Shown: one piece after another, positions 6,668-58,685 of the stretch
Numbering within the stretch: the first letter of the stretch is position 1
How the letters are laid out: every line of letters begins with the position of its first letter
Origin: a virus
Direction: 5' to 3' (one strand)
IMG/VR virus record: IMGVR_UViG_3300012039_000001
Length of the DNA: 64,000 bases
Program-made: the position numbers and the translations under genes
The notes under the pieces: generated by a model
Database searches by the model: none
What the model saw: the letters and a program-made list of their open reading frames with translations, nothing else
Told to the model about the DNA's origin: nothing

Positions 6668-6710
6668 TTGGAGTATGGGTTGGTTGCAGTAGTTTTTTAA
6701 AGGAGAGGTT

Positions 6711-8433: not shown

Positions 8434-8652
8434 ATGTTAGTAAAAGCTTACCAGAAAAGTTTCGAGACTAATTATAATAATGTTCATGTTGGAACCTGTT
8501 TTTGGTATGAGAAAAATCTGTATATGAAAACTATGGACGTATATGGGAGCCCTGGATACGCGGTTAGATTAAGCAGTGGCAAAGCGTTTTGGTTCAATAG
8601 TGTTACAATGGTAACTCCTGATTACGATGTTAATGTCGTTAATGGCAAATAA
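8434..8652 (+). CDS. hypothetical protein
   Basis: 72-aa ORF, tightly packed. No motif recognised. Confidence 0.5.
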   Translation: MLVKAYQKSFETNYNNVHVGTCFWYEKNLYMKTMDVYGSPGYAVRLSSGKAFWFNSVTMVTPDYDVNVVNGK

Positions 8653-8653
8653 A

Positions 8654-9556
8654 ATGAATATAATAACAATTCATAATACAGTGGATGACGAAATAGTTGA
8701 GTATCCTTATGAGTCCCTAATATTCCCAGGTGGGGAGCCTCATATTAAACTAGACCCAAAATGGTTTTCTGGTAAAGTGATTTGGATTAACGCTAGGATT
8801 GGTGATTGTAATGGGTTTATGACTTTGATGTGTCTAATTGACGCCATTAAAGCGTGCAAACCGAAAAAGCTGGGTTTATTTATCCCATATCTCCCAGGAG
8901 CGAGACAGGACAGAAGGGAGTTTGGGACGGCACATACTTTACGTGTCTATGCGGAAATGATAAAAGCCGCTAATTTGGATTTAGTTGTGGTTGTTGATCC
9001 ACACTCAAATGTTCTTGAAGGAATTTTAGATCCAAGAATAGTGGGACAAGAAGAAATTGTACCTAAAGTGCATTATGGTGGATATGACGCTATAATTTGT
9101 CCAGACGCAGGAGCAGAAAAGCGTGTAAGTAAAGTTGCAAATGAATTAAAAGTAACCAGTATTATACATGCAAGCAAAAAGAGGGATGTAGTAACTGGTA
9201 AGCTATCTGGTTTTTCCATCCAAAATCCTCTTATATTCCCAGACAATAATAAGGTCTACAAATATTTAATAGTAGATGACATTTGTGATGGTGGAGGCAC
9301 ATTTATTGGGTTGGCCAAAGAAATAAATAGAACTTTCCTTCAAAAGTATCAATTAGATTTATTTATCAGTCACGCCATCTTCTCTAAGGGAATTGATGAT
9401 TTATTGCAATGTTTCAATAGAATAATAACAACAGATTCATTTCCATTTGAGAATTTTGAATTAGCGAATGATTGGATTAAATATGGACAATCAAAAGTTT
9501 TAGTCAGTAGGTTGATTTTCTTGGCTCAGGATATAATGAAAAAGGAGTTAATATAA
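8654..9556 (+). CDS. prs: ribose-phosphate pyrophosphokinase-family protein (Prs-like; possible ADPR pyrophosphokinase)
   Basis: 'FPGGEPHIKL', 'IPYLPGARQDR', 'VVVDPHS' and the PRPP loop 'LIVDDICDGGGTF' are collinear with Prs. ATG 8654 follows the previous stop. Confidence 0.85.
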   Translation: MNIITIHNTVDDEIVEYPYESLIFPGGEPHIKLDPKWFSGKVIWINARIGDCNGFMTLMCLIDAIKACKPKKLGLFIPYLPGARQDRREFGTAHTLRVYAEMIKAANLDLVVVVDPHSNVLEGILDPRIVGQEEIVPKVHYGGYDAIICPDAGAEKRVSKVANELKVTSIIHASKKRDVVTGKLSGFSIQNPLIFPDNNKVYKYLIVDDICDGGGTFIGLAKEINRTFLQKYQLDLFISHAIFSKGIDDLLQCFNRIITTDSFPFENFELANDWIKYGQSKVLVSRLIFLAQDIMKKELI

Positions 9557-9744
9557 TGGAAAAGGCAAAGTATAAGTATTATGTTGTTGTAAAGGAAGTG
9601 TGGAATAATAACATTATAATAGAAAGCGATAATCCTCTAACGAGAGAAGATTTAATAAAAGAAGTTGAAAAAGACATAGAAGAAGGCGACTTGGCTTACA
9701 GCCATACGCTAGAATCAGATGAATGGGAAACAGGAGAACTATAA
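9556..9744 (+). CDS. hypothetical acidic protein
   Basis: 62-aa ORF bridging the Prs-like and NAMPT-like genes, with start and stop overlaps on both sides. Confidence 0.5.
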   Translation: MEKAKYKYYVVVKEVWNNNIIIESDNPLTREDLIKEVEKDIEEGDLAYSHTLESDEWETGEL

Positions 9745-11198
9745 TGAATCCAATAGAGCTTATTGACGGTTATAAAATAGGTCATAAAGATCAGTACCCA
9801 AAAGGAACTCAAAGGATCTATTCTAATTGGACCCCGCGTTCATCTAGAATCGAAGGACAAAAAGAAGTTGTAACATTTGGTCTTCAATACTTTTTAAAGC
9901 ACTACCTAAAGGATATTTTCCAAACTTTCTTCTTTGATAAGCCAAGACACGAAGTTGAAAGAGAATACGCAGATAGAATTAAAGCCTATCTAAACCTACA
10001 GGAATTTGATACGAGTCACATTGGCGAGCTTCACGAATTAGGTTATTTGCCACTAGAATTTCGTGCTTTGCCAGAAGGAACATTGTGTCCTCTCGGTGTT
10101 CCAATGTTTACTGTTGAAAATACAGATGATAGATTCTTTTGGTTAGTGAACTATATTGAAACACTTATTTCAAATAGTATTTGGATTGGGTCAACTTCTG
10201 CTACATCAGCGTATCGTTTAAGAAAACTATTAAATACAGCGTGTCTAATGACCGGAGGAGATCCTGGGTTTGTCCAGTGGCAAGGGCATGACTTTAGCAT
10301 GAGAGGTATGGCAGGACTAGACGCAGCTATATTGTCTGGAGCGGGACATTTACTTTCATTTACAGGCACGGATACTATTCCGGCTATTGGGTTTGTTGAG
10401 AAATATTATCCAGGAGAAAATGGTTTAATTGGAGGTAGTGTTCCGGCAACAGAACATTCAGTAATGTGTGCCGGAGGAGAAGAAACTGAACTTGAAACAT
10501 TTAATAGACTCTTGGACATTTATCCCACTGGAGTATTATCTGTGGTGAGCGATACATGGGATTTATGGAAAGTAATAACTGGAATTCTTCCACGCCTTGT
10601 AAATAAGATAATGAATAGAGACGGCAAAGTTGTAATTAGGCCTGACAGTGGAGACCCAGTTAAGATTATTTGCGGAAATCCAGATGGAAAATCCGAGGCA
10701 GAAATTAAGGGAGTTGTTCAACTGCTTTGGGAAATCTTTGGAGGAACAATAAGCTCTAATAGCGATGGTTCTTTTAAGCATCTTGACCCTCATATTGGAG
10801 TAATTTACGGAGATGCAATTACTTACGAAAGAGCACAAGCTATTTGTGAAGGATTGAGGCAAAAGGGATTTGCTTCAACTAATATTGTGTTTGGTGTTGG
10901 TAGTTATACTTACCAATATGTAACTAGAGATACTTATGGTTTCGCAATGAAGGCTACTTGGGCTAGAATTAACGATAAAGAGTTCAACCTATTCAAGAAA
11001 CCAGTGACAGATACAGGGGATAAATTCTCCGCTAAAGGACGACTGGCCGTCCTTAAAAATGATGAAGGCAAATTATATTTGGTAAATGAAGCTTCAGAAA
11101 AAGATCAACTGAAATCACAGCTACAATTGGTGTGGAGAAACGGGACTTTTACTAAAGCCCAATCGTTTAAAAATGTGAGGGAGACGTTATGGGGTTAA
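9744..11198 (+). CDS. nadV: nicotinamide phosphoribosyltransferase-family protein (NadV/NAMPT-like; possible Namat)
   Basis: 484 aa. N-terminal 'DGYKIGHKDQYP', then 'HDFSMRGM', 'SVPATEHSVM', 'VIRPDSGDP' and 'VIYGDAIT' are typical of the NAMPT family. Confidence 0.9.
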   Translation: MNPIELIDGYKIGHKDQYPKGTQRIYSNWTPRSSRIEGQKEVVTFGLQYFLKHYLKDIFQTFFFDKPRHEVEREYADRIKAYLNLQEFDTSHIGELHELGYLPLEFRALPEGTLCPLGVPMFTVENTDDRFFWLVNYIETLISNSIWIGSTSATSAYRLRKLLNTACLMTGGDPGFVQWQGHDFSMRGMAGLDAAILSGAGHLLSFTGTDTIPAIGFVEKYYPGENGLIGGSVPATEHSVMCAGGEETELETFNRLLDIYPTGVLSVVSDTWDLWKVITGILPRLVNKIMNRDGKVVIRPDSGDPVKIICGNPDGKSEAEIKGVVQLLWEIFGGTISSNSDGSFKHLDPHIGVIYGDAITYERAQAICEGLRQKGFASTNIVFGVGSYTYQYVTRDTYGFAMKATWARINDKEFNLFKKPVTDTGDKFSAKGRLAVLKNDEGKLYLVNEASEKDQLKSQLQLVWRNGTFTKAQSFKNVRETLWG

Positions 11199-41488: not shown

Positions 41489-41746
41489 ATGACAAAATAC
41501 GAACATGAATTATATTTATCAGCAAAACATTTATTAATAGATATAGATGGGTCTCTATATAAGTTCAAGTGTCCGAAAAAATTTCGATCAATAAGATTTG
41601 AAGACATACTAGATCTAAGGAAAGTATTATATGCCTTCAAATTAGAAGAATTCAAAAAAGCTAAAAAATTAGCCTTAAATTTAGATAGTCATATTTGTGA
41701 ACTTTTACCAAAATGTATATTAGAATATGTGGATTATTTAAAATGA
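41489..41746 (+). CDS. hypothetical protein
   Basis: ATG 41489 lies 1 nt after the previous stop. Confidence 0.45.
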   Translation: MTKYEHELYLSAKHLLIDIDGSLYKFKCPKKFRSIRFEDILDLRKVLYAFKLEEFKKAKKLALNLDSHICELLPKCILEYVDYLK

Positions 41747-42495
41747 AAGATATAGCAAAAATTTTAGATTTATTTTATATAAAAGGTAGAATTATTTGTA
41801 TTGGAGATATACATTCTCAATATGACGCCTTAATGAATCTTTTAAAGAAAGTTCAATACGATGAAAAAACAGACTATTTAATAGCTTGTGGAGACCTCAT
41901 AGATAGAGGTGTCCAGCCAAAAGAAGTTCTTGGATTTTTCATGCCCGATAATCCACAAGAAGATAATAAGAGATATTCGGTATGTGGGAACCACGATTTC
42001 AAGTTGATGAGATATTTACATGGAGCCAAAATAAAAGCAGGTGAAGCTCTAAAACAAACAATAGATATACTAGAATATCAATGTAATCCAATAGAATTAG
42101 CCGTTATAGGATTATTCTTGAAGGGTCTTCCGAATATTATAAGATTACCAGACTTAAAGGGAAAACCGCTTTATTTAACTCATGCTGGAGTAGACGCTAA
42201 ATATCCAATAGACCAGCAAAAAATTCAGACGACATTGTTTGTAAGGGGAATAAATCCTAAAAATTATTTTGACGAAAGCCAAGGGGTGTGGTATGATTTC
42301 CTAGATGGCTCTTATAGAGTGGTTTCTGGACATATCGTTTCTCCAATCGTCCAGCCCAATGATAACGTGTTCTGCTTGGATAATGGGGCGTGTCACGGTG
42401 GCTCTTTAAGAGCCATGATAATTGAAAAAGACAATTTTGAAATAATAGAGATTAATTGTGCGCAGACTCCTGGTAAAACAATATCAAATTCATAG
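41743..42495 (+). CDS. PPP-family metallophosphoesterase (lambda-phosphatase/PrpE/ApaH-like)
   Basis: 'CIGDIHSQ', 'ACGDLIDRG', 'CGNHDF', 'LTHAG' and 'VSGH' form the full calcineurin-like motif set. ATGA overlap with the upstream ORF. Confidence 0.85.
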   Translation: MKDIAKILDLFYIKGRIICIGDIHSQYDALMNLLKKVQYDEKTDYLIACGDLIDRGVQPKEVLGFFMPDNPQEDNKRYSVCGNHDFKLMRYLHGAKIKAGEALKQTIDILEYQCNPIELAVIGLFLKGLPNIIRLPDLKGKPLYLTHAGVDAKYPIDQQKIQTTLFVRGINPKNYFDESQGVWYDFLDGSYRVVSGHIVSPIVQPNDNVFCLDNGACHGGSLRAMIIEKDNFEIIEINCAQTPGKTISNS

Positions 42496-42695
42496 TTGGG
42501 TAATAGGAGGATAAGATGCGAGACGAGAAAATATATATTAGATAACTTATGATTGACACCAGCGCGACATATAAATTTAAGGTAACTAATAATAGCTGGT
42601 GATAACGAGTTGAGCTTAATAAGACGATGTAATCAACTTATATACCTGAAAAGTGATTTTACGTTTTACAAAAACATGATAAAAATGGAGAAAAT

Positions 42696-42917
42696 TTGAA
42701 AAAAGATCAGATTTGCACGATATGTGGGGAGAAAATAGTGTGCATGGTTCCTGTATACAAAATGTTTAAAGCAGAACTTTTAGCCAGTGGTGACTTAATA
42801 TATGATTTTAAAGAGAACCATCTAGTCCACCTTACATGTTTTAGTCCTCCACTTTTTGTTAAAAAAGAAATAAATAAGCCAGACAACGATTGGTTAGATG
42901 GAGTAGTTAATGAATAA
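42696..42917 (+). CDS. small Cys/His protein
   Basis: TTG start follows GGAG. 'CTICGEKIVC ... HLVHLTC' is a possible zinc site. It overlaps the start of the BrxL-like gene. Confidence 0.45.
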   Translation: MKKDQICTICGEKIVCMVPVYKMFKAELLASGDLIYDFKENHLVHLTCFSPPLFVKKEINKPDNDWLDGVVNE

Positions 42918-44325
42918 AGAAATTATTAATGATCTTGTATTAAGAAAAATATTAATAGATAAATCTCTTTTAAGAATATCAGATAATTTTAAAAAATTAC
43001 CAAGATACGTTGTAGAATATTTAATTTCTAATTTTGTAGACAAAAATAATAAACAACAAGGAATTGAAAGAATCAACAAAATCATAAACGAAAATCATAT
43101 AGAATCTGATAAAAAAGAGTGGGTCAAAAATAAAATAAAAATAAATGGAAAATATAATTTAATAGGCGACTTAAAATGCTCTTATGACCAATATAGCAAT
43201 GAGTATATAGCACACACAACTGTTCTGTCTGGTAACAAGGTAAGAGTGTCTAAAAGTGTCATAGATCAATTTGGTGACGTTTTACTCAGCGGAGGTTGTT
43301 TCGGCAACTGTTTAATAGAATTCGTCAATCCAGGCCTAATGTCAAAAAAACAAGATCCATATCACCTTACTTCCTTTATACCGTTTAAAATAACAAAGAT
43401 AACAATTCAAGAGTGGTTAAAAATAAGAGAGAAGTTTTCCTTAGACGAATGGATTAATCTAATTATCAATACGCTTGGATTTAATCCAGAAAAATTATCA
43501 GAAAATGAAAAATGGTTGTATTTATTTAGATTAATACCATTAGTTGAATCAAATATTAATTTTATAGAACTTTCTAGTCCTGAGACAGGAAAGACATATT
43601 TTTATAGATCAATAAGTAATAATAGTCTCATTCTATCTGGTTCCGATATAACCGTAGCTTCATTATTTTATAATAAAGTATCTAAAAGAGCGGGAGTATT
43701 AGGGAATAAAGACTGTGTAATATTTGACGAAATAGTAACCGCTAATTGGAATAATAAAAAAGATCTTCAAAATATATTAAAAGATTATTTAGAAAATGGA
43801 AAGTTCAATAGAGATAATGTAGAAATATCTAGTGATTGTTCTATTGTATTTTTAGGAAATATAGTTTGCGACAGAGGAAACAAGAAACCATTAGATATAT
43901 ATAAACATCTCCTCGATCCTCTTCCAGAGATAATTAAAAATGATACCGCTTTTCTCGATAGGATAAATGGATTTATCCCAGGATGGGAAGCGCCTCAAAT
44001 ATCTTCTTCTAATTTTTCTGAAGACTATGGATTTTCTAGTGATTACTTTAGTGAAATATTACATAAATTAAGAACAGTTTCTTTTTCAGAATTGATAAAA
44101 TCAAAAATAGATTTTCAAGATACTTCATTTAGGAATGAAAGATCAGTTATAAAAATTACGTCGGGGTTAATCAAGGTCTTATTCCCATCTGGTCGAATTA
44201 ATAATGATGAGTTAGAAATATTAGTTGAAAAGTCAGTTGAGTTAAGAGAAAGAGTTCTACAACAACTACACGTAATAAATCCCAATGAATTTAACGGAGA
44301 AATAAAATGGCAATTAAAAAATTAA
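42910..44325 (+). CDS. BrxL-like ATPase (N-terminal domain + ATPase, no Lon protease domain)
   Basis: 'LPRYVVEYLISNF', 'INFIELSSPETGKTYFY' (Walker A), 'ITVASLFYN', 'CVIFDEI' (Walker B) and 'LKDYLENGKFNR...IVFLGNI' are collinear with BREX BrxL as I recall it. 471 aa, ending before where the Lon-like domain would be. Confidence 0.7.
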   Translation: MNKEIINDLVLRKILIDKSLLRISDNFKKLPRYVVEYLISNFVDKNNKQQGIERINKIINENHIESDKKEWVKNKIKINGKYNLIGDLKCSYDQYSNEYIAHTTVLSGNKVRVSKSVIDQFGDVLLSGGCFGNCLIEFVNPGLMSKKQDPYHLTSFIPFKITKITIQEWLKIREKFSLDEWINLIINTLGFNPEKLSENEKWLYLFRLIPLVESNINFIELSSPETGKTYFYRSISNNSLILSGSDITVASLFYNKVSKRAGVLGNKDCVIFDEIVTANWNNKKDLQNILKDYLENGKFNRDNVEISSDCSIVFLGNIVCDRGNKKPLDIYKHLLDPLPEIIKNDTAFLDRINGFIPGWEAPQISSSNFSEDYGFSSDYFSEILHKLRTVSFSELIKSKIDFQDTSFRNERSVIKITSGLIKVLFPSGRINNDELEILVEKSVELRERVLQQLHVINPNEFNGEIKWQLKN

Positions 44326-44741
44326 AATTAGTCGAACAATTAGATAAAGATGGTTGCACTACAGCATGTTTAGCTATGCTTTTAAATAAATCATATTTTG
44401 ATATGAGAAAATATATTCATTTAAATGTGGAAAGATTTAAGAATCATTATAATTGCTATTCGTGCTGTTTATATTTTTTTGAAATAAAAGAAATTTTAGA
44501 TAAACTTAAAATAAAAAATGAATTTATAAAATTCGAATCCTTTGACAAGTTAAAAGGCCATAATATATTATCAGCTTCTATTATTGGGCCAGTACATTCT
44601 GCTCACTCTATTATTTTTGATGGTAAAACGAGAAAAATTCTTGATCCAAGTAGAAAGTCAGAATATGATCATATAAAACATAATTACAATATATATAAAT
44701 GTATACAAATTGGAGATCAAAATGCCAGAAGAAGTAAATAA
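44307..44741 (+). CDS. papain-fold cysteine peptidase (C39-like)
   Basis: 'EQLDKDGCTTACLAMLL' (Gln and catalytic Cys context) and 'HSIIFDG...ILDPS' (His/Asp). Overlaps the BrxL-like gene by 19 nt. Confidence 0.55.
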   Translation: MAIKKLKLVEQLDKDGCTTACLAMLLNKSYFDMRKYIHLNVERFKNHYNCYSCCLYFFEIKEILDKLKIKNEFIKFESFDKLKGHNILSASIIGPVHSAHSIIFDGKTRKILDPSRKSEYDHIKHNYNIYKCIQIGDQNARRSK

Positions 44742-44832
44742 CAAGAAACTTGCAATAATAGCTTTTATATTACTGGGATTAATTTTTGCCACGCCTTTAA
44801 TAAATATAATTATTCCATTAATAAGAGGATAA
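44722..44832 (+). CDS. small membrane protein (36 aa)
   Basis: MPEEVNNKKLAIIAFILLGLIFATPLINIIIPLIRG has a single TM helix and fills the gap before 44834. Confidence 0.35.
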   Translation: MPEEVNNKKLAIIAFILLGLIFATPLINIIIPLIRG

Positions 44833-44833
44833 T

Positions 44834-45043
44834 ATGGAAATTAAAGTAAAACCATTTATAAAAAGAGACGAAAAAATTTGTGGTATAATAGATAAGTATG
44901 TAAAAATATATACTGAAATTAGATTTGCTATAATAGAAGCAGCTTTGAAAGTTGCTTTAAAATATGATTTAGATAAAATTAGAATAGATGATTACGAATA
45001 TATATTAAAAGAATATTTTGTTGACGAAGGAGTAGGTATATGA
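44834..45043 (+). CDS. hypothetical protein
   Basis: 69-aa ORF. Confidence 0.45.
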   Translation: MEIKVKPFIKRDEKICGIIDKYVKIYTEIRFAIIEAALKVALKYDLDKIRIDDYEYILKEYFVDEGVGI

Positions 45044-45471
45044 GTTCTCATTGCCAAGTAATAAATTATAGACTAGAAGAACTATGCAAAAAAGCTTTAA
45101 AGAATATAGACCGAAGAAGGGAAATAGAAGCACAAAATCATTTATTAGAATTTCAAAATAGATATAATAAGAAGAGACAGTGGTTTAGAAAAATGCTTTT
45201 CTTTGGAATTCCAAAGCTTGAAAATATATCAAAAGAAGAAGCTCATGCAATAATCTTATTCAGAAAAGAAAATGGAACAACATGGGATAGAATAGAACAT
45301 ATGGATTATCCAAAATATAAACATGTTTGGAAGGATAATGAACTAGTAATTTTAAGATTAACGTCTTTATTAGAAGTATGTTTTGCGGATATGACAATAA
45401 CAGCAGAAGACGCTGGTTATTTGATGGCGGTGGTTGATTGGAAGGAAGAAAATGAAGCACTATTTAATTAG
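45040..45471 (+). CDS. hypothetical protein
   Basis: 143-aa ORF with ATGA overlap. Confidence 0.5.
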   Translation: MSSHCQVINYRLEELCKKALKNIDRRREIEAQNHLLEFQNRYNKKRQWFRKMLFFGIPKLENISKEEAHAIILFRKENGTTWDRIEHMDYPKYKHVWKDNELVILRLTSLLEVCFADMTITAEDAGYLMAVVDWKEENEALFN

Positions 45472-45670
45472 ATATTCTATTTCACAAGATAGGGTTACAG
45501 AAATAAAAGCTGACAGTCCAGAAGAAGCTAGAAAAATATTTGAAAAAGACAATTATAAATATCCAACTACTCGTTGCGATATTGTGTTTTCCGAAGGAGC
45601 TAATTTTAATTATTTAACAGAATTAGATGTAAATGGAGACGACATAGAAGGAAGTGAATTCTATGGTTGA
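45452..45670 (+). CDS. hypothetical protein
   Basis: ATG 45452 (MKHYLIRYS...). 72 aa. Confidence 0.45.
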   Translation: MKHYLIRYSISQDRVTEIKADSPEEARKIFEKDNYKYPTTRCDIVFSEGANFNYLTELDVNGDDIEGSEFYG

Positions 45671-45878
45671 CACAATTCCTAATTGGGTTATCATATTTTT
45701 TATTATTGGCTTACTAGGAAGTCCTTTAATGGGAATAAATATAATTGCTGTATACACAGAAAAAGATCAACCTATTGAGCATAAGATAATATCGTTTATA
45801 CTTTTTATTGTTCCTGTTATAATGTTTTTAAAATCAATGTTTTATTTATTTAATAAAGCTATGGGGGAATTACCTTGA
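45663..45878 (+). CDS. small membrane protein
   Basis: ATG 45663. Two hydrophobic helices. Confidence 0.45.
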   Translation: MVDTIPNWVIIFFIIGLLGSPLMGINIIAVYTEKDQPIEHKIISFILFIVPVIMFLKSMFYLFNKAMGELP

Positions 45879-46579
45879 GGTATCTTGGCGGAAAGGCAAA
45901 AGTAGCTACTAAGTTAACAACTTTTTTAGAATCTGTTCGTAAACCTAATCAAATGTTCGTAGATGGAATGGTTGGTGGTTGTAGCATAGTAAGAAAAATG
46001 ACAGGAGAAAGAATAGCGGCAGACTCATGCCCCTATTTAATTACTTTTTTAAAATGTCTCCAAGATGGATGGACGCCACCGGAAACTATTTCAGAACAGA
46101 GATATTATGAAATAAGAAAAATGTATAAAGAAGGATATCATGCTCCAGTAATAGGATTTGCTGCCTATTTCTGTTCTTTCGGAGGAAAATTTTGGGGAGG
46201 GTTCGCAAGAGATCCAAAGACAGCAAGAGATTTTGCTAACGAAGCATATAGAGATGCCTTAAAACTAATGGAAGAAATTAGAGAAGTAAAATTATTTTGT
46301 TGCGATTATTCAGATCTTTTAATTAATATAATTCCTGAAAAATCTTTAGTTTATTTTGACATTCCTTATGAAGGAACAACTGGTTATAAAAACAAGTTTT
46401 ATAATTCCCTTTTTTGGCAAGTAATAAGGATTTTTTCAAATAAACATGATATTTATATCTCGGAATACCAAGCACCAGAAGACTTTGAATGCGTTTGGTC
46501 TTTAAAACGCAAAACGGAATTAAACACTAAAAATGGAAAAGACACGAGGATAGAAAAGCTCTTCAAATATAAAGGATAA
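45875..46579 (+). CDS. DNA N6-adenine methyltransferase (Dam/D12-class)
   Basis: N-terminal 'RYLGGKAK' and catalytic 'FDIPYEGTTGY' (DPPY variant). TTG start overlaps the previous stop. Confidence 0.75.
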   Translation: MRYLGGKAKVATKLTTFLESVRKPNQMFVDGMVGGCSIVRKMTGERIAADSCPYLITFLKCLQDGWTPPETISEQRYYEIRKMYKEGYHAPVIGFAAYFCSFGGKFWGGFARDPKTARDFANEAYRDALKLMEEIREVKLFCCDYSDLLINIIPEKSLVYFDIPYEGTTGYKNKFYNSLFWQVIRIFSNKHDIYISEYQAPEDFECVWSLKRKTELNTKNGKDTRIEKLFKYKG

Positions 46580-46580
46580 T

Positions 46581-46709
46581 ATGAATAAAATAGAAAGATT
46601 TTTAAACAATATTACTGGTTTTATTAATGATTATTTGGATACTTTCTTATTTGTCTGTATGATTTTATTTGTTTTACTTATGTTTATTATTTCTAAATCT
46701 TTACCTTAA
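46581..46709 (+). CDS. small membrane protein (42 aa)
   Basis: MNKIERFLNNITGFINDYLDTFLFVCMILFVLLMFIISKSLP has a single TM helix and fills the gap. Confidence 0.35.
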   Translation: MNKIERFLNNITGFINDYLDTFLFVCMILFVLLMFIISKSLP

Positions 46710-46723
46710 AAAAGGAAAAATAA

Positions 46724-47011
46724 ATGACAAAATTTCCAAAAGAATTTATGTTGCAAGTATTAGAAGAAGAAGTGGGAGAAATCATATCTAATAAAATAAT
46801 AGAACAAGGAAGATGGGATATTTTACATCAATTGATATGGAAACACCCGGACGGAAGAGTTTTTCAATGTGGATACAGACAGGGAGCAACTGAACAACAG
46901 GATCAGGGTCCGTGGGAATATGACAAGGAAGTTCACTGCGTAGAAATGGAAAAGAAGATAGTTGAAGTAGAACAATGGGTAATAAAAATGCCGGAAATTA
47001 AAAATGAATAA
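46724..47011 (+). CDS. hypothetical protein
   Basis: 95-aa ORF. Confidence 0.5.
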   Translation: MTKFPKEFMLQVLEEEVGEIISNKIIEQGRWDILHQLIWKHPDGRVFQCGYRQGATEQQDQGPWEYDKEVHCVEMEKKIVEVEQWVIKMPEIKNE

Positions 47012-47207
47012 AAGAATAAAGAATTTAATAGAAGATATGCTTATAGTTGAGTTAAGACAAGTTTTTGAGAAATTAAACAAAGATCAAAAGGAAATGTTTA
47101 AAAAAGTTTTTGGTTCTGAAATAGGTAAATTTTCACAAGAAAAATTATGTCAAGCAATTGATTTGTGTGATAGAACAATAGCCAAAAATACTAAAGAGAG
47201 AAGATGA
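47004..47207 (+). CDS. hypothetical protein
   Basis: 67-aa ORF. Confidence 0.45.
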   Translation: MNKRIKNLIEDMLIVELRQVFEKLNKDQKEMFKKVFGSEIGKFSQEKLCQAIDLCDRTIAKNTKERR

Positions 47208-47208
47208 T

Positions 47209-48036
47209 ATGTCATTAGGATTTTTGATCCAAGATAAAATTTTTGAAGATGATCAAATTACTTTAATAAAAATTCTTCAAGACAATAATATCCCATATAT
47301 TATTCACAAGGAAAAAGATTTTTGGCTATATGTATTTCCTATTTACAATTATGATAATAGATTTTCTATTCAAGGACGACAAGAAATAGACAAAGTATTT
47401 TGTTATGGATCTCTAGAATGGATATTTCAAATTCAAAAAATAAATAATCCAAACTATAAAACTATATGTACTATAGACAATTATGATTGTAAAAATTATT
47501 ATCATCATTATAAAAATCTTTTATTCAACAAAGACGCCAAAATATGGCCAGTCGAATATTTTTTAGATGATTGGGACGGAGAGCAAATTTTTATTAGACC
47601 GTGCGTAGGATATAAACCAAAAGGATTTACCGGGGGAGTATACAAAGAACAAGATAGAAACTATATAAAAGAATGTTTTAGTAAAAGTAAAGATATTTTA
47701 ATAGCTCCTGTCAAACATATAGACTACGAATATAGATTTATAGTTAATGATAAAAATAAATATATAACTGGTTGTCAATATAAATCATTTTGCCATGAAA
47801 CTAAAAAATTAGGTTTTGACCCTTCTCCAATAGTTCCACTTGAGATTCAAGAAAGATTTATTGATAATATTCTAAGTAAATTAGAATGGCACCCAGATCC
47901 AATTTATGTGATAGACGTAGCGGAGAGTGACGCAGAATTATTTATTCTAGAAATAAATGCTTTAAGCACATCTGGATGGTATGATTGTGACTATGGAAAA
48001 ATAGTAAAGGAGATAATAAAATATTATGGCATTTGA
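47209..48036 (+). CDS. ATP-grasp-like protein (R2K-clade/DUF4343-like)
   Basis: 'IFIRP...KGFTGGVY', 'EYRFIV' and 'YVIDVAESDAELFILEINALSTSGWY' fit the ATP-grasp C-terminal half. Family assignment is moderate. Confidence 0.55.
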   Translation: MSLGFLIQDKIFEDDQITLIKILQDNNIPYIIHKEKDFWLYVFPIYNYDNRFSIQGRQEIDKVFCYGSLEWIFQIQKINNPNYKTICTIDNYDCKNYYHHYKNLLFNKDAKIWPVEYFLDDWDGEQIFIRPCVGYKPKGFTGGVYKEQDRNYIKECFSKSKDILIAPVKHIDYEYRFIVNDKNKYITGCQYKSFCHETKKLGFDPSPIVPLEIQERFIDNILSKLEWHPDPIYVIDVAESDAELFILEINALSTSGWYDCDYGKIVKEIIKYYGI

Positions 48037-48319
48037 TCCAAAGAAAATAAAATTTCCAAGCGAAAAAGAAATATTAGAAAGATTAGAGAAGATTATAGAT
48101 AAAGAAATAAAAGGTGATATAGATTATGATCCAATGAAAATTAGACAACAGTGTTGTTTTGATATAATGATTCCAGAAGGCTTATTCACTGTGTTAAAAA
48201 ACAATCAAATGATTTATGACAAATTGAATAATATGTACAAAAATAAGGGGTGGGAAGATATTGAAATAAACGAAAATTCATGTCTTCATAATATAAAGCT
48301 GAAGTATTATTTTGATTGA
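48026..48319 (+). CDS. hypothetical protein
   Basis: 97-aa ORF. Confidence 0.5.
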   Translation: MAFDPKKIKFPSEKEILERLEKIIDKEIKGDIDYDPMKIRQQCCFDIMIPEGLFTVLKNNQMIYDKLNNMYKNKGWEDIEINENSCLHNIKLKYYFD

Positions 48320-48326
48320 GGAAAAT

Positions 48327-48575
48327 ATGTTTATCGAGTGTAATTGTAATAGTCCCGAACATGTATTTAAATTTACTCTAGAAAAAGAAGATAATTGGAT
48401 TATAATGGAACCATTTCTCTGTCATTATAATTCTTTCCTAAAAAGAATTTGGCTAGGTTTGAAATATATTCTTGGATATAAAAGCAAGACTGGACATTTT
48501 GATACTGTTCTAATAGGCGTAGAAAAAGCAAAATTAATAAGAGATATATGCGAGGAACTGATCAATGAAGCTTAA
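48327..48575 (+). CDS. hypothetical protein
   Basis: ATG 48327 follows GAGGA (MFIECNCNSPEH...). Confidence 0.45.
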   Translation: MFIECNCNSPEHVFKFTLEKEDNWIIMEPFLCHYNSFLKRIWLGLKYILGYKSKTGHFDTVLIGVEKAKLIRDICEELINEA

Positions 48576-48756
48576 TAAAGAATTATACGCAGCGGTACTT
48601 AACGATGCGGTTATAGGAAATTACGAAAGCGCAATAATGAGTCTTGATAAAGAATTAGTACAACATGATATAGATTTCATGACAAAAGAAGGTATGCCGT
48701 ACTTTGAAGAAAAAAATAATATTAAAATAGTAAAGGTTAAAATTGTACCATGTTAA
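48565..48756 (+). CDS. hypothetical protein
   Basis: 63-aa ORF. Confidence 0.45.
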   Translation: MKLNKELYAAVLNDAVIGNYESAIMSLDKELVQHDIDFMTKEGMPYFEEKNNIKIVKVKIVPC

Positions 48757-49931
48757 AAATACCAGAAGAATTTCTTATAAAAGATGGAGAGGACGGAGAA
48801 AAACTAATAATTCCAGGGTATGGAGTTGGGAATAAATGTTGGCAAGACTATAAATTAAGATGGTTGAGATCTTTACACATAGATAAATACGATAGAATAG
48901 TCTCCACGGGTTTCCCGAAGTTCATGAACCTCGGAATTGGAATAGACAAGTTCAAAGTTACATTAGAAGACATTATGTCTTCTTTTGGCAAATCACAAAA
49001 TGTATTATCAACAGAAAAGATAGATGGATCTTTGTTAATCAGGTATATCCAAAACGATACAGTGAAATGGAGAACAAGAGGTTCTTTAGGGATTGAATTA
49101 GATAATGGTTATGAAATACAAGAATTTTGTGAAAAATATCCATTACTTAATGATCCAAATTATTGTTCTCGTTTGTCTTTATTTTTTGAGTGGGTGTCTC
49201 CATTAAATCAAATAGTTATAAAATATAACGAACCAGATTTGATTCTTATAGGAGGGTCCACTTATGAAATGAATATTCCGTGGTACGAAGCAAACATATC
49301 TCTTTTAAATATAAATCATTTAAAAACAATATCAAAACAACTGGAAACAAGATTGACCAATAACTGGACGATAAATAATAGACATGGACTAGACAAACTT
49401 ATGTCTGTTGTAGAAGATAAAAAAACAATGAATTTAGAGGGATACGTTTTAAGGATAGAAGGAGAACAAAGACTAGTAAGAATAAAGACTCCACAGTATA
49501 CTCTTCTCCATGCGATGAGATCTAATTTGACGACAGAGCTACTTATTGGTTTATGGTTAGAATGGGATAAGCCCGATTTTGCACAGTACAAAGAAAAATT
49601 TATTAACTATTATGATTATGAGAGTTTCCAGTATGCTCTACCGGCTGTTTCCTCTATGTTTGATGGAATTAAAGTAGCTGAAAATATATTAAATCACATA
49701 GAGATATTAGTTCTAGAATTCAAAAATGGATTTTTGCCAGAAAAATCCAGAAGCGAGTTTGCCTTACTGGCTAAGCAAAGATATCAAGATATAAAGTTGT
49801 CTACTTGTTTTAGTTTATTAGATGGAAAACAACCTTCAGAGAAATTTTGGACAACTATGATTTTTCAAAACTCGAAAAAATTTGAGTTAAGAATGTTCAA
49901 TAAAAATACGGAGGACGAAAATGAGGGGTAG
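48750..49931 (+). CDS. RNA ligase (T4 Rnl1-like)
   Basis: Motif I 'TEKIDGSLL', motif III 'LFFEWVSP', motif IV 'LILIGG', motif V 'EGYVLRIE...VRIKTPQY'. Confidence 0.75.
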   Translation: MLKIPEEFLIKDGEDGEKLIIPGYGVGNKCWQDYKLRWLRSLHIDKYDRIVSTGFPKFMNLGIGIDKFKVTLEDIMSSFGKSQNVLSTEKIDGSLLIRYIQNDTVKWRTRGSLGIELDNGYEIQEFCEKYPLLNDPNYCSRLSLFFEWVSPLNQIVIKYNEPDLILIGGSTYEMNIPWYEANISLLNINHLKTISKQLETRLTNNWTINNRHGLDKLMSVVEDKKTMNLEGYVLRIEGEQRLVRIKTPQYTLLHAMRSNLTTELLIGLWLEWDKPDFAQYKEKFINYYDYESFQYALPAVSSMFDGIKVAENILNHIEILVLEFKNGFLPEKSRSEFALLAKQRYQDIKLSTCFSLLDGKQPSEKFWTTMIFQNSKKFELRMFNKNTEDENEG

Positions 49932-50758: not shown

Positions 50759-51352
50759 ATGTTTATAGATATTTCGAATGAAAGATTTGGGAAATTGATT
50801 GTAATAAAATATGTTGGAAAAAATAAATATGGATCTTCTGAGTGGTTATGTTTATGTGATTGTGGTAATTATCACATAGTAACAACGAGCCATTTAAGAG
50901 GAGGACATACCAAAAGTTGTGGGTGTTTGAGTCCTGGATTTAGTGATTCTAAAATATATGGTGTATGGGTTTCAATGGTTCAAAGATGTACTAATCCAAA
51001 CGACAGAGCATATAAAAATTACGGAGGAAGAGGAATAAAAGTTTGTGAGAGATGGTTAAAATTTGAGAATTTCTATAAAGACGTTGGAGATCCTCCTACA
51101 AAAAACCATCAATTAGATAGAATAAATAATGATGGTAATTACTGTCCTGAGAATTGGAAATGGTCCACAAGAAAAGAACAAAATAGAAATAAAAGTAATA
51201 ATAGAATGGTGCCACTAAATGGTAAAATCTTGTGTTTGAAAGATTATTGTGAACAATTTAACATTAGATACAATACCATTCTTGGAAGAATATTAAGAGG
51301 ATGGTCTGTTAATAAGGCTTTAAATACACCTATTAAAAAAAGGAGAAAATAA
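50759..51352 (+). CDS. HNH_3-like DNA-binding / homing-endonuclease-like protein
   Basis: 'WLCLCDCGN...SCGCL' zinc-like N-terminus, 'YKNYGGRGIKVCERW' and 'LDRINNDGNYCPENWKWSTRKEQNRN'. It lies immediately upstream of thyX. Confidence 0.55.
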   Translation: MFIDISNERFGKLIVIKYVGKNKYGSSEWLCLCDCGNYHIVTTSHLRGGHTKSCGCLSPGFSDSKIYGVWVSMVQRCTNPNDRAYKNYGGRGIKVCERWLKFENFYKDVGDPPTKNHQLDRINNDGNYCPENWKWSTRKEQNRNKSNNRMVPLNGKILCLKDYCEQFNIRYNTILGRILRGWSVNKALNTPIKKRRK

Positions 51353-52182
51353 TGACGGAATTTTTGACTAAACCTAGAATTGAGTTAATAGGAAAATCTG
51401 TGTTTGATATAGATGGTTTAATGAAATTTCTTGATTCATCTGGATTTGAATGGCCAGAATTTCAAAAAAAATTAGATAGCAATATGGATCTGGGGGACCA
51501 TGACAACGAATACTTAATAGAATTCGGAGGACGAAACTGCTACCAAAGCTGGCCCAAAAAAGGAGGAGAACTTAAAGGTCGAACACACGAACAGCACATA
51601 AAACATTTAATAGAGGTAGGCCACGGAAGCTGTCTTGAGCATTCCACATTCAACTTCCAAATCTGGAACGTCTCCCGTAGCCTAACCCACGAACTTGTAA
51701 GAACGAGGGTTGGCGTCGCGTATAGCCAGCTTAGTCAGAGGTACGTAGATTCTTCTAATATCAATTTTATTGTCCCCCCGGCTATTCTAGAACTAGAAAA
51801 AGTAAACCAGCAAGCTGTAGAAAAATGGAAGCAATTCTGCTTACAATCAAGAGATTTATACGAAGAACTTACTTCTGACTTAATGGAATTATATAAAGAT
51901 ATTGAAGATAAAACGGAGAAAAGGAAAAGAAGTAGAGAATCAGCAAGAAGTGTACTTCCAAACTGCGCGGAAACCAAAATCATGGTCACTCTAAATGGTA
52001 GATCGGTAAGAACATTAATGGAATTGCGTGGATCACAGGGGGCAGACAGAGAGATAAGAATGTTGGCAGTAGAAATGTTTAAAATAATGGAAAGAGATTT
52101 TCCTTTAATAGTTCATGGTATGTCTATTATTAAATTGCCAGATGGCTCAGAAGGTATTGAGAGTAAATTTAGAAAGGTATAA
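51352..52182 (+). CDS. thyX: FAD-dependent thymidylate synthase ThyX
   Basis: 'HGSCLEH' and the ThyX signature region 'THELVRTRVGVAYSQLSQRY' (a variant of RHRxxSxxxxSxRY). 276 aa. Confidence 0.85.
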   Translation: MTEFLTKPRIELIGKSVFDIDGLMKFLDSSGFEWPEFQKKLDSNMDLGDHDNEYLIEFGGRNCYQSWPKKGGELKGRTHEQHIKHLIEVGHGSCLEHSTFNFQIWNVSRSLTHELVRTRVGVAYSQLSQRYVDSSNINFIVPPAILELEKVNQQAVEKWKQFCLQSRDLYEELTSDLMELYKDIEDKTEKRKRSRESARSVLPNCAETKIMVTLNGRSVRTLMELRGSQGADREIRMLAVEMFKIMERDFPLIVHGMSIIKLPDGSEGIESKFRKV

Positions 52183-52684: not shown

Positions 52685-52942
52685 ATGATGACGGAAGATA
52701 TTAGAAAAGTTGATACTTTTAATTCTTTGAAAAAGGAATTGAATAAAAATGGTTTATTTATAGATATTGATGATATGGGGCATAGATTTGTTGTTGGCCA
52801 GAATAAATATAAAGACAAGTGGGAAAATCTTATAGAGAAATTAGAAGAAGAAGCTCCGGTAGCTCTTTTTGATACTACACAAGAAGTAAAAGCTTTCGCT
52901 ATTGGCTTTACCGTGGGTAACAATAAAAAGTGGAAATACTAA
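52685..52942 (+). CDS. hypothetical protein
   Basis: 85-aa ORF. Confidence 0.45.
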   Translation: MMTEDIRKVDTFNSLKKELNKNGLFIDIDDMGHRFVVGQNKYKDKWENLIEKLEEEAPVALFDTTQEVKAFAIGFTVGNNKKWKY

Positions 52943-52943
52943 A

Positions 52944-53330
52944 ATGTTAAAATTTGGAAGTTTTCCGTTTTTGGAGTGTAGTTCAAAAGGAGATAAAAGA
53001 TTCTCTGCTTTCTATGCTAAAATAAGATCTAGAGAAAATAAGTCAATAGAAGAAATTTATCAAAGTAGCAAGATATTTAAAACCAGACATGGAAATAATT
53101 TTAGATATATTGAGTATTGGAGAGACGCAAAAGGGCTAGAACCCATTAATAAAATAGAGATACGAAAACTATATTCAAATCTTTGGGATGAATATTTTGA
53201 AGAAAATTCTCAACTATTAGATATTATCAAAGAGTTCAATGGATTTAGTGATATATTCGGTCAGAAAGGACATTGTTGTCAAGCAGAAGAAATTTGGAGG
53301 ATAAAAAATGAAAAAGAAAATAATGTTTGA
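52944..53330 (+). CDS. hypothetical protein
   Basis: ATG 52944 lies 1 nt after the previous stop (MLKFGSFPFLECSSKGDKRFS...). Confidence 0.5.
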   Translation: MLKFGSFPFLECSSKGDKRFSAFYAKIRSRENKSIEEIYQSSKIFKTRHGNNFRYIEYWRDAKGLEPINKIEIRKLYSNLWDEYFEENSQLLDIIKEFNGFSDIFGQKGHCCQAEEIWRIKNEKENNV

Positions 53331-53619: not shown

Positions 53620-53857
53620 TTTAATAATGATGTGTTTTATTGTTGGATGCGCAGAAAAAACAGAAGAAAAAGCTCTCTTTAAAGAAGGAGATGTTCTAAA
53701 ATTTAAAATTAGTGGCGAAACTTGTCAAGTTATAAATTGTGATTATTATTCTAAATATCCATACAGAATTAGATGTTCTTCAAAAGAATTAATACCGTCA
53801 TTATTTTGGGTAAGAGAATTTGAAATAGAAAAAATAAATGAAGACAACAGTCGTTAA
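53600..53857 (+). CDS. putative lipoprotein
   Basis: 'MKKIIVSLIMMCFIVGC' is a signal peptide with a lipobox-like IVGC. Confidence 0.55.
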   Translation: MKKIIVSLIMMCFIVGCAEKTEEKALFKEGDVLKFKISGETCQVINCDYYSKYPYRIRCSSKELIPSLFWVREFEIEKINEDNSR

Positions 53858-54428
53858 TCTAAAATACGAAAAGGGAGACATTAATTGTGGCCGTCCTAGT
53901 AAATGGGGGAATCCTTATATAATAGGTAAAGATGGCGATAGAGAAGAAGTATTACAAAAATATAAAAAATATCTATTTAACGATCCTGATTTAATAATAG
54001 AAGCAAGAAAAGAATTAAAAGACAAGGTTCTTGAGTGTTATTGTAAACCGTTAAAGTGTCACTGTGATTTACTAGCCTATTTGTGCGACATAAAAATATA
54101 TGCGGTTGTTGGATCTAGAAATTTTAATAGTTTTGATATACTAGAAAATGAGTTAAATAAATATAAAATAAAGTTAGTAGTAAGTGGTGGTTGTAAAGGC
54201 GCAGATATATTAGCTAAGAAATATTGTGAAAAATATAAGATTCCAATAATAGAAATATTACCTAAGTGGGATAAGTACGGGAAAAGAGCAGGTTTGATTA
54301 GAAACCAAAAAATAATAGATTTATGCGATACGTGTATAGCGTTTTGGGACGGTAAATCTAAGGGAACAAAACATGATATAGATTTGTGTAAAACAAATAA
54401 TAAAGAATTAGAAATAGTGTATATATAA
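53838..54428 (+). CDS. DUF4326 - SLOG (DUF2493/YspA-like) fusion protein
   Basis: N-terminal 'CGRPSKWGNPY...YKKYL...CYCKPLKCHCD' (DUF4326 pattern). C-terminal 'VVGSRNF...VVSGGCKGADILAKKY...WDKYGKRAGLIRNQKI...AFWDGKSKGT' (SLOG/DUF2493 pattern). Confidence 0.65.
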   Translation: MKTTVVNLKYEKGDINCGRPSKWGNPYIIGKDGDREEVLQKYKKYLFNDPDLIIEARKELKDKVLECYCKPLKCHCDLLAYLCDIKIYAVVGSRNFNSFDILENELNKYKIKLVVSGGCKGADILAKKYCEKYKIPIIEILPKWDKYGKRAGLIRNQKIIDLCDTCIAFWDGKSKGTKHDIDLCKTNNKELEIVYI

Positions 54429-57481: not shown

Positions 57482-58024
57482 ATGGATAGATTATGTTGGG
57501 AAGACTACTTCATGATACAGGCTTTATGGGCAAGAACTAGAAGTCCTGATTCTAGCACACGTCATGGAGCTATTTTAGTAGACAAATACAATAGAATAAT
57601 AGGACAAGGATATAATGGTTGGGCAAGAGGAGTAGATCACAAGAAAATGCCCAAAGATAGACCAGAAAAATATCCACCCATACTTCATAGCGAAGAAAAT
57701 TGTATAGCTAATTCAACAGGAGATTTGGAGGGATCAACTCTTTATGTAAGTGGCCCTCCCTGCACGCATTGTTGGGCGAATATTATTCAACATAGAATCA
57801 AAAAAGTTGTTTATGGTCCAATTGGTTTTCCAGAAGATAGCGCTTATGCAGATATAAATAACGGAAATTTTCCACAAGTTGTATTAGATATGCTTGAAAA
57901 TCAAAACATTGAAGTGGTAAGATGGATACCTGGAGATATTGATTTGATTAGGAAACAGTTTAAACATACAGACGCAATGTTAAAATCAGTTTTCTGTTTA
58001 GAAAATGAAGAAAGAGAAGAATAA
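57482..58024 (+). CDS. dCMP deaminase
   Basis: 'WEDYFM..A...A.RS.D..T..GA.LV', 'HSEENCI' (HxE) and 'PCTHCWANI' (PCxxC). 180 aa. Confidence 0.85.
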   Translation: MDRLCWEDYFMIQALWARTRSPDSSTRHGAILVDKYNRIIGQGYNGWARGVDHKKMPKDRPEKYPPILHSEENCIANSTGDLEGSTLYVSGPPCTHCWANIIQHRIKKVVYGPIGFPEDSAYADINNGNFPQVVLDMLENQNIEVVRWIPGDIDLIRKQFKHTDAMLKSVFCLENEEREE

Positions 58025-58034
58025 GGAGAAAAGA

Positions 58035-58685
58035 ATGAAGATCAATAAAATTATACTTCCAATCATTGCAGCATTAGGTCTAGTTACATTTTCTATAGGA
58101 CAAGTCATTCCAGGAGATTCTTCTAGTTATCCATCAATAAGAATTAATAACTCACCACATAATCTTAATAATTATCCTGGTATCAATATACCTGGAAACC
58201 AAATATGCTTACCATGCCATATTCCACATAATGCACAAGCTCCAGAAGCAGGACAGAGAAATCTTTTATGGAATCACGCTGCCACGAATCAAACATTTGT
58301 CATGTTTAGTAGTTCAGCAGGACAACCACAGGGAACAAGCAAATTATGTTTAAGCTGTCATGATGGTGTAACAGCTATTGATAGTTATGGTGGTACTATT
58401 GGGAATACAACTATCACAGGAACAGCTAATCTTGGAACAGATCTTTCAAACGATCATCCAATTGGAGTTGAATATCCTACAACTCGCATTGGTCAAAGCT
58501 GGAATAGTCCAGATACTTTCGGCCCTGGAATTAATGGAAGTTCTGGGATTAGATTAGTAACAGTTAATGGAGTAAAAAGAGTGGAATGTAATTCTTGTCA
58601 CAATCCACATAATAATGGTTTGGGAAATTTTTTAAGAGTACCTATCCAACAAAGCTATCTCTGTCTACAATGTCATATTAAATAA
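58035..58685 (+). CDS. secreted tetraheme c-type cytochrome
   Basis: AAGGAG RBS followed by signal peptide MKINKIILPIIAALGLVTFSIGQ. Four CxxCH motifs (CLPCH aa 58-62, CLSCH 105-109, CNSCH 185-189, CLQCH 210-214) in 216 aa. Confidence 0.8.
   Translation: MKINKIILPIIAALGLVTFSIGQVIPGDSSSYPSIRINNSPHNLNNYPGINIPGNQICLPCHIPHNAQAPEAGQRNLLWNHAATNQTFVMFSSSAGQPQGTSKLCLSCHDGVTAIDSYGGTIGNTTITGTANLGTDLSNDHPIGVEYPTTRIGQSWNSPDTFGPGINGSSGIRLVTVNGVKRVECNSCHNPHNNGLGNFLRVPIQQSYLCLQCHIK

Follow-up and report, generated by a model that had tools for sequence, protein, structure and literature searches.

A short BrxL ATPase encoded outside BREX loci and its putative zinc-ribbon partner in a lineage of uncultured phages

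In a 64,000-nucleotide stretch of the IMG/VR virus record IMGVR_UViG_3300012039_000001 (the whole stretch is denoted the window hereafter), three overlapping genes on the plus strand encode a 73-aa Cys/His protein, a 471-aa ATPase related to BrxL of the BREX (bacteriophage exclusion) defense systems, and a 144-aa cysteine peptidase (Table 1). An earlier note, made from the sequence alone, had placed the three open reading frames (ORFs) at these coordinates and quoted a series of motifs (PRYVVEYL, SPETGKT, VASLFYN, VIFDEI, GKFNR, QLDKDGCTTACLAMLL, and HSIIFDG), all of which are present in the translations. Each of the three starts is preceded by a GGAG Shine-Dalgarno sequence 5-7 nt upstream; the first gene overlaps the second by 8 nt (ATGAATAA) and the second overlaps the third by 19 nt. 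BrxL is needed for BREX restriction, not for methylation, and is the least understood component of these systems; how BREX stops phage replication is unresolved. Here, we assign the ATPase to BrxL, describe it as an orphan with respect to other BREX genes, and propose the small zinc protein as its conserved partner and the peptidase as an incidental neighbor. We hold this set of assignments with high confidence.

The short BrxL and the upstream zinc protein

The 471-aa protein is matched by the Pfam domains BrxL_N (1.3e-19, 70.9 bits) and BrxL_ATPase (7.9e-103, 344 bits), both above gathering, by the PADLOC BrxL models (up to 3e-114), and by TIGR02688, the curated 449-position NCBIfam equivalog for BrxL without the Lon-like domain (410.4 bits against a cut-off of 329.3, covering profile positions 7-449 of 449). 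The long-form model, TIGR02653, is not satisfied: the score of 327.5 bits falls short of its cut-off (628.25), and alignment stops at profile position 459 of 675. The match to Acinetobacter BrxL (PDB 8EMC, 3e-71) aligns chain residues 21-463 of 679, so that the phage protein stops at the point where the C-terminal domain would start, and no remnant of the Lon-like domain (PF05362/PF13541) was found anywhere in the window. These matches bear out the reading of the earlier note that the protein represents the N-terminal and ATPase parts of BrxL: it is a bona fide BrxL made up of an N-terminal domain and an AAA+ ATPase domain, with no Lon-like domain. The Walker A residues K228/T229, the Walker B residues D273/E274, and N317, R351, R388, and R408 are invariant in 29/29 BrxLs of the phage clade delineated below.

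All phage-clade BrxL ORFs are short (466-509 aa, n = 29), as are about 40 cellular ones. A recent truncation of a long BrxL is ruled out by the short length of every clade member and by the lack of a Lon remnant in the window; given also that the phage proteins form one clade, the short form is ancestral within it. Lon-less BrxL is the normal form in Type-4 BREX, where there is no C-terminal extension, and in type-1 BrxL the Ser-Lys dyad is missing from the Lon-like domain (PMC12839542). Cryo-EM shows this C-terminal domain to make the ring-ring contacts and dimerize the rings; BrxL is an ATP-dependent ring that encircles double-stranded DNA (dsDNA), with a DNA-stimulated ATPase and a fold resembling that of MCM (minichromosome maintenance) helicases, and is required for restriction, which is abolished by the E280Q substitution (PMC10164562).

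The gene upstream of brxL encodes a zinc-ribbon-like protein of the C2HC type whose C-terminal tail is conserved. In 12 homologues, the four putative ligands C7, C10, H45, and C48 (C-x2-C ... H-x2-C) and the tail residue L67 are invariant, and the tail conforms to the consensus V-x-R-S-D-A-L-x-L-F. Public gene calls for this protein use an internal ATG (42738-42917; 57-59 aa; 9829-10008 in L005, numbers of this type designating the compared loci) and thereby drop the invariant CxxC. The invariance of Cys7 and Cys10 requires translation to begin at the TTG at 42696, which has GGAG 6 nt upstream (42686-42689). A hidden Markov model (HMM) of the zinc protein gave matches preceding brxL, with order and strand conserved, in all phage-clade loci for which at least 700 nt of upstream sequence were available (27 distinct zinc-protein sequences) and in 0/80 cellular BrxL loci. 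The zinc gene is still found upstream where an HNH homing endonuclease gene has been inserted between it and brxL (L011, L019, L026, L030, and L032-36). Two different HNH families occupy this same junction, which implies a conserved target in the population. Truncated HNH remnants were also observed between the two genes in L037 and L040, and a homologue of one of the inserted families is encoded in the window just upstream of thyX (50759-51352).

No Pfam, NCBIfam, or PADLOC family matched the zinc protein. In the AlphaFold2 (AF2) model, residues 1-50 are folded, with beta hairpins, at a predicted local distance difference test (pLDDT) score of about 80-87, and residues 52-73 are disordered in isolation. 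Assignment of the fold failed, the search returning only weak and uninformative matches to ribosomal zinc ribbons (E > 0.3). The earlier note had registered the 73-aa Cys/His protein correctly but treated it as incidental; conservation across the loci points instead to this protein, and not the peptidase, as the partner of the phage BrxL.

The downstream peptidase and the rearranged block

Taken as a single sequence, the 144-aa protein scores 18.4 bits against Pfam PF03412 (Peptidase_C39), below the gathering score of 22, and matches phrog_4049 at 4.4e-6. Word-indexed searches for homologues of the peptidase and of the zinc protein gave almost nothing; an exhaustive phmmer search recovered 51 relatives of the peptidase at E <= 1e-3, mostly stand-alone proteins of 125-155 aa. 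In the family alignment, C17 and H100 are invariant and Q11, D105, D113, and P114 nearly so (Q11 and D113-P114 in at least 90%). Peptidase_C39 is matched by 22/45 family members at E <= 0.01 (best 5e-8), and in a comparison of the family profile with PCAT1 and ComA, their C39 domains matched at about 2e-4 and the catalytic positions lined up. The AF2 model (pLDDT 91.5) retrieved staphopains (1e-5 to 4e-4) and PCAT1 (1.2e-3) in a Foldseek search of the PDB and, among viral proteins, like-sized stand-alone C39-like proteins in unrelated phages, one of them annotated as a Peptidase C39 domain protein. Judging by the family profile and the fold match, the protein is a true cysteine peptidase of the papain fold and C39-like type, with the predicted catalytic set in place, as the earlier note had suggested. 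There is no ABC transporter near the gene in the window, and none was evident among the ORFs surrounding the homologues in L127 and L128.

The note further proposed that the Lon module of BrxL had been replaced by this translationally coupled peptidase, the two proteins forming one ATPase-protease machine. Such coupling would account for the 19-nt overlap and the Shine-Dalgarno sequence ahead of the peptidase start, and the intact Gln/Cys/His/Asp set and confident papain fold would suit an active protease. However, when the peptidase HMM and tblastn were run against all ORFs of the 129 loci, the peptidase adjoined brxL in identical copies of this phage alone and was absent from this position in the other ~28 phage-clade loci and the 80 cellular loci. 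The note had made the proposal depend on co-occurrence of the two genes in other genomes, and there was none beyond these copies. In L127 (the same contig as L015), 4.3 kb separate the homologue from brxL, which lies downstream, and the overlap is with a different gene, that for the metallophosphatase-RNA ligase described below; L128 and L129, both on viral contigs, encode the peptidase with no brxL within 5 kb. The slot downstream of brxL varies among the relatives, being occupied by an unrelated family of 110-131 aa in the nearest subclade, directly by ThyX in many loci, by methyltransferases in some, and by unique ORFs elsewhere. The overlap has a simpler explanation: because overlapping start/stop junctions are common here (24/45 gene junctions in the window), it represents compact phage gene packing and not a sign of functional coupling. 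Moreover, the short BrxL is a pre-existing, curated form that long predates the arrangement in the tree. Because the canonical Lon-like domain lacks the Ser-Lys dyad, is reported to be catalytically dead, and is structural (PMC12839542, PMC10164562), no protease activity was lost. We therefore consider a protease swap highly improbable; the peptidase is an unrelated accessory gene that lies directly downstream of brxL in this phage alone by chance. The 110-131-aa family (MFNxIxDIW...FGLxVxFTxSLDGVDY...KKKRRIIL) overlaps the brxL stop in the closest relatives and has no homologue in the window.

The 200-nt interval preceding the zinc gene, called the largest non-coding gap in the note, is the longest on the plus strand to lack ORFs of at least 40 or at least 50 aa. 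Rfam gave no match at E <= 1, terminator-like sites were not found, and promoter-like sites were not enriched (15 against 18.4 expected); by these scans, the gap is not a recognized regulatory RNA. In the closest relatives, the gap is small or nil (56 nt in L009, none in L127). The metallophosphatase gene to its left corresponds to the 5' half of a gene that in L011 (637 aa; 1037-2950) and L127 (640 aa; 5375-7297) is fused with the gene for the T4-type RNA ligase 1 (Rnl1). Residues 13-256 of the L127 fusion protein align to 41743-42470 of the window and residues 257-640 to 48741-49919. The halves are separated in the window by a 6.2-kb block (42496-48740) that carries the zinc gene, brxL, and the genes for the peptidase, a D12 methylase, and an R2K ATP-grasp protein. 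The two halves share the point of the break, at the linker residues 'NC'; the hexamer AATTGT, present at both junctions, is too short to interpret. An apparent extension of the metallophosphatase-Rnl1 coding sequence into the gap, beyond the stop codon, in the tblastn alignment was rejected as alignment drift.

Table 1. Positions of the genes, domains, and residues discussed in the text (window coordinates unless a locus is named)
Feature	Position	Strand	Remarks
Metallophosphatase	41713-42495	+	5' half of gene fused to Rnl1 in relatives
ORF-free gap	42496-42695		200 nt, upstream of zinc-protein/brxL pair; left edge of rearranged block
Zinc-protein ORF	42696-42917	+	73 aa, TTG start
Zinc-protein putative ligand Cys7	42714-42716		
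Zinc-protein putative ligand Cys10	42723-42725		
Zinc-protein putative ligand His45	42828-42830		
Zinc-protein putative ligand Cys48	42837-42839		
Short BrxL ORF	42910-44325	+	471 aa
BrxL_N domain	aa 13-137		of the 471-aa protein
AAA+ ATPase domain	aa 152-463		of the 471-aa protein
Walker A	43588-43596		G227-K228-T229
Walker B	43726-43731		D273-E274
Further key BrxL residues	N317, R351, R388, R408		sensor-1 N317
C39-like peptidase ORF	44307-44741	+	144 aa
Peptidase predicted catalytic Gln11	44337-44339		
Peptidase predicted catalytic Cys17	44355-44357		
Peptidase predicted catalytic His100	44604-44606		
Peptidase predicted catalytic Asp113	44643-44645		
Rnl1 (T4-type RNA ligase 1)	48750-49931		3' half of split gene
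ThyX	51352-52182	+	Syntenic anchor of zinc-protein/brxL pair
Inserted HNH gene, L011	5002-5529		
Inserted HNH gene, L019	3287-3952		
Inserted HNH gene, L026	3303-3950		
Inserted HNH gene, L033	3316-3966		
Inserted HNH gene, L035	3324-3956		
Inserted HNH gene, L036	3305-3952		
110-131-aa family, L009	6981-7364		
110-131-aa family, L015	5359-5754		
110-131-aa family, L016	5334-5723		
110-131-aa family, L041	5379-5711		

The phage lineage and the BREX context

The phage origin of the window, assumed in the note, is well supported. DNA identical to the window is also present on a 168,682-bp metagenomic contig, and the relatives are IMG/VR viral contigs of 120-181 kb. PHROG-matching genes are numerous, including those for nicotinamide phosphoribosyltransferase (NAMPT), phosphoribosyl pyrophosphate (PRPP) synthetase, ribonucleotide reductase (RNR), an exonuclease, and HNH endonucleases; there are four tRNAs, the G+C content is 32%, and nearly all long ORFs and every identified gene are on the plus strand. 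No cultured close relative was detected by blastn of 8 kb against INPHARED, and tblastn with BrxL, the exonuclease, and an AAA protein gave distant matches only. The carriers of the pair are thus uncultured phages, about 120-180 kb in size, of one lineage.

Related phage contigs encode the BrxLs closest to that of the window (45-49% identity). A distance tree groups the phage short BrxLs in a single deep clade, sister to the cellular short BrxLs, with the long BrxLs outside both. A tblastn search showed ThyX downstream of brxL in 29 loci; the distance from the pair is 7 kb in the window, 0-3 kb in most relatives, and 0-8 kb across all phage loci. When loci were anchored on ThyX, brxL was found upstream of thyX in 26/26 viral loci, including five on contigs that the BrxL searches had missed. 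The pairwise distances of BrxL and ThyX are correlated (r = 0.73; reached by 0/2000 Mantel permutations), and their means (0.42 and 0.38) indicate that the two proteins are about equally constrained. Synteny of the genes for ThyX, ClpP, a trypsin-like protein, and RNR is common to the window and L004. By these comparisons, the zinc-protein/brxL pair behaves as a vertically inherited, core-like part of a DNA-metabolism module (thyX, clpP, RNR) and not as a recently captured cassette.

Two observations concern single members of the compared set. The ThyX of L011 (9652-11562; 636 aa) contains an intein (Pfam Intein_splicing plus Thy1). In L038/L039 (3911-5392; IMGVR_UViG_3300018080_000098, 349,793 bp), a 'viral' contig encodes another, unrelated short BrxL (493 aa, 33% identity), with neither the zinc protein nor PglZ directly upstream; in the tree, it groups with a long cellular BrxL.

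The cellular short brxL genes sit in BREX-type loci. They directly follow an ORF of about 870-980 aa, which proved to be PglZ by Pfam in both loci checked (n = 2); in the loci checked, pglZ is next to genes for an N6_N4 methylase and a DUF6079 protein. The hosts are mainly Chloroflexota, Acidobacteriota, Planctomycetota, and archaea. The two cellular loci closest to the phage clade (L070, 45-5154, and L057, 728-3160) encode PglZ, N6_N4-type methylases, and DUF6079 proteins, and not the 3'-phosphoadenosine-5'-phosphosulfate (PAPS) reductase of Type-4 BREX, so short BrxL is not confined to Type 4. In a BREX system, brxL is accompanied by genes for PglZ, BrxC, and a modification enzyme (PglX or BrxP). 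No PglZ, PglX, or BrxC was found near the phage brxL, and the ORFs of the window reach 590 aa at most. A scan of IMG/VR for PglZ with two short patterns, of limited sensitivity, matched no contig of the BrxL clade. Within the scope of the loci and the pattern scan, the phage brxL stands apart from pglZ and the rest of the BREX genes.

The PglZs that end just before a cellular short brxL (L047-L086) share a conserved acidic tail (..T/G-D/G-A/G-L-D-x-L-D-D-L/V) that is absent from the PglZs of long-BrxL loci. The likeness of this tail to that of the zinc protein is apparent to the eye but not significant (rank about 26 and E about 90 with an HMM of the zinc-protein tail; column-shuffle p = 0.07), and is kept as a lead. 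It figures in the possibility, raised in the earlier note, that the phage protein is an anti-BREX decoy or interferer, which would mimic host BrxL and titrate PglZ/BrxC or poison host BrxL rings. Identity between the phage protein and the PglZ-adjoining cellular short BrxLs is about 40%, the loose resemblance of the tails hints at a shared docking peptide, and phages are known to carry the BREX inhibitors Ocr and OrbA (PMC7261183, PMC11580459). A decoy, however, need not keep every catalytic residue, and all are invariant here; it would be useful only against hosts with a matching BREX system, whereas the gene is universal in the lineage. The tail likeness lacks statistical support, and the 32% G+C of the window is to be set against the mainly Chloroflexota, Acidobacteriota, Planctomycetota, and archaeal distribution of the cellular loci. 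We regard a decoy function as improbable.

A possible DNA-ring ATPase and comparison with known systems

The neighbors of brxL in the window encode the metallophosphatase, RNA ligases, the D12 methylase, and ThyX. The D12 methylase gene lies 1.5 kb downstream in the window and in L009, L011, L015, and L041 and is confined to the subclade of the window. Genes for nucleotide-modifying enzymes are also near (ThyX, NT5C, and, in L001, dCMP deaminase). Farther away in the window, adjacent genes for ribose-phosphate pyrophosphokinase (8627-9556) and NAMPT (9723-11198) form an NAD+ salvage pair; such pairs are used by phages to counter NAD+-depleting defenses. Between thyX and clpP lie an ORF with a faint NADAR/DarT1-associated match (52902-53330) and a gene for a DUF4326 plus YAcAr (SLOG) protein (53838-54428), both of families linked to ADP-ribose or nucleotide-signal processing. 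A 226-aa ORF just upstream of the RNR gene (58005-58685) has a C-terminal paired CXXCH motif of the multihaem cytochrome type (Pfam Paired_CXXCH_1, 1e-10).

Our preferred interpretation is that the phage BrxL is a BREX-independent, MCM-like DNA ring ATPase that, together with a phage-specific zinc adaptor, has been kept as a core pair; we consider this reading as a whole, in which the role is inferred, to be evenly balanced between right and wrong. The phage BrxL would assemble into an ATP-dependent ring around duplex DNA, like Acinetobacter BrxL, and probably into a single ring, since the dimerizing C-terminal domain is missing. The folded zinc ribbon and the disordered tail of the zinc protein could make up a phage-specific adaptor or loader that docks on the ring through the tail and replaces the licensing given by PglZ/BrxC in BREX. 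The ring would then serve the replication or recombination of the phage's own DNA, as a domesticated MCM-like motor and not as a weapon. The biochemical part of this scheme, a DNA-ring ATPase working with a zinc adaptor, appears fairly likely. That the ring serves the DNA metabolism of the phage itself, and not conflict, is plausible but falls a little short of an even chance; this role is favored by the lineage-wide conservation of the pair, its enzyme-like constraint, its placement among DNA-metabolism genes, and the repeated insertion of homing endonucleases.

Several points weigh against this interpretation. Helicase activity has been demonstrated for no BrxL (PMC10164562). The physical link between the zinc protein and BrxL is suggested by adjacency and co-conservation alone. 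The ThyX-anchored survey samples only the lineage defined by this type of ThyX. The tree is a rough neighbor-joining distance tree with midpoint rooting, by which the direction of transfer, from cell to phage or from phage to cell, is not resolved. The PglZ patterns missed the type-1 PglZs of L043-L046, so that a divergent PglZ could escape them, and, as loci and not whole genomes were seen, a conventional replicative helicase may lie outside. Finally, the neighborhood is rich in genes of the counter-defense or repair type (Rnl1, Rnl2, the phosphatase, the D12 methylase, the NADAR-like protein, and NAMPT with PRPP synthetase) and fits a role in conflict equally well.

Such a role has been considered in the form of a weapon for exclusion or host shut-off, in which the pair would be a minimal BREX-like effector that loads on foreign DNA, either the host chromosome or that of a co-infecting phage, and blocks the initiation of replication, with the zinc protein giving target specificity and the phage's own DNA spared by modification. 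BrxL is the restriction-specific component of BREX, proposed to block phage replication (PMC10164562), the ATPase required for restriction is intact in the phage protein, and the neighbors just listed, together with the nucleotide-modifying genes, are of the kind expected in conflict. However, conflict genes are usually patchy and fast-evolving, whereas the pair is present in 26/26 members of the lineage, co-diverges with ThyX, and is equally constrained. Furthermore, no discriminator of self from non-self has been shown, and the D12 methylase is confined to one subclade. A weapon is thus an unlikely, though not negligible, alternative. The captured defense that the earlier note envisaged fares no better than its decoy: carriage by a virus stood, but both functions are disfavored by the lineage-wide vertical conservation and the fully intact ATPase motifs.

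Returning to the DNA-ring reading, we tentatively extend it, at a level of confidence that marks the extension as unlikely on present grounds: a lineage of large phages would use an adaptor-loaded BrxL ring as an essential MCM-like motor of replication or recombination, and BREX may have acquired its short BrxL from phages, not the other way round. If so, the defense effector BrxL and a phage replication protein would be two faces of one machine, and BrxL loading would be licensed by a peptide defined by the tail of the zinc protein (and possibly by the acidic tail of PglZ as well).

In the searchable literature, we found nothing on phage-encoded BrxL or on 'BrxL-like' or TIGR02688 phage proteins. 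The Lon-less form of BrxL was known already; new is the orphan BrxL in the core of a phage genome with a dedicated zinc-ribbon partner. A protein filed as 'defense' can be a core phage gene, which matters for the annotation of viral contigs by defense finders: PADLOC and NCBIfam would both label the phage brxL as BREX. The comparison also removes the tempting story of a protease swap. Stand-alone C39-like proteins of other phages (phrog_4049; the 'Peptidase C39 domain-containing protein' of Bacillus phage vB_BcoS-136) have the same size as the window peptidase. Its Q-x5-C, His, and Asp-Pro elements align with the catalytic residues of PCAT1, and it shares the papain-like fold with the C39 domains of PCAT1 (4RY2) and ComA (3K8U); unlike these, it is neither fused to nor beside an ABC transporter, and a double-glycine leader substrate is not evident.

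Among known systems, the cellular short BrxLs (TIGR02688, Type-4 BREX) are the nearest to the phage protein: they have the same layout of BrxL_N and MCM-like AAA+ ATPase with no C-terminal extension, are 38-41% identical to it, and share the catalytic motifs. They differ in having PglZ directly upstream, where the phage BrxL has the C2HC zinc protein and forms a clade of its own. Compared with the type-1 BrxL of Acinetobacter (8EMC/8EMH; PMC10164562), the phage protein keeps the Walker B Glu (E280, here E274) and has the ring-interface residues E79 and L134 as the conserved E70 and L125, whereas the pore residues R104 and K287 of 8EMC are not kept (Y95 and N281). It also lacks the 200-residue C-terminal Lon-like domain that dimerizes the Acinetobacter rings head-to-head and is encoded outside a BREX operon; an ATP-dependent ring on dsDNA is likely to be shared. 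The ATPase and OB (oligonucleotide/oligosaccharide-binding) region of BrxL are structurally closest to MCM (PMC10164562, PMC12839542); MCM helicases are archaeal and eukaryotic, and MCM-like helicases are also encoded by phages or prophages. No homology between the zinc protein and the MCM zinc finger was detected. The N-terminal domains of MCM use a zinc-binding module, and a zinc module supplied in trans by the phage would parallel it as an analogy. The phage pair can be regarded as a natural minimal, BREX-independent version of the system, one ring ATPase with one 73-aa partner, conserved like a housekeeping gene, and hence as a simpler system for asking what the BrxL ring does to DNA, what loads it, and which of its surfaces binds the partner peptide.

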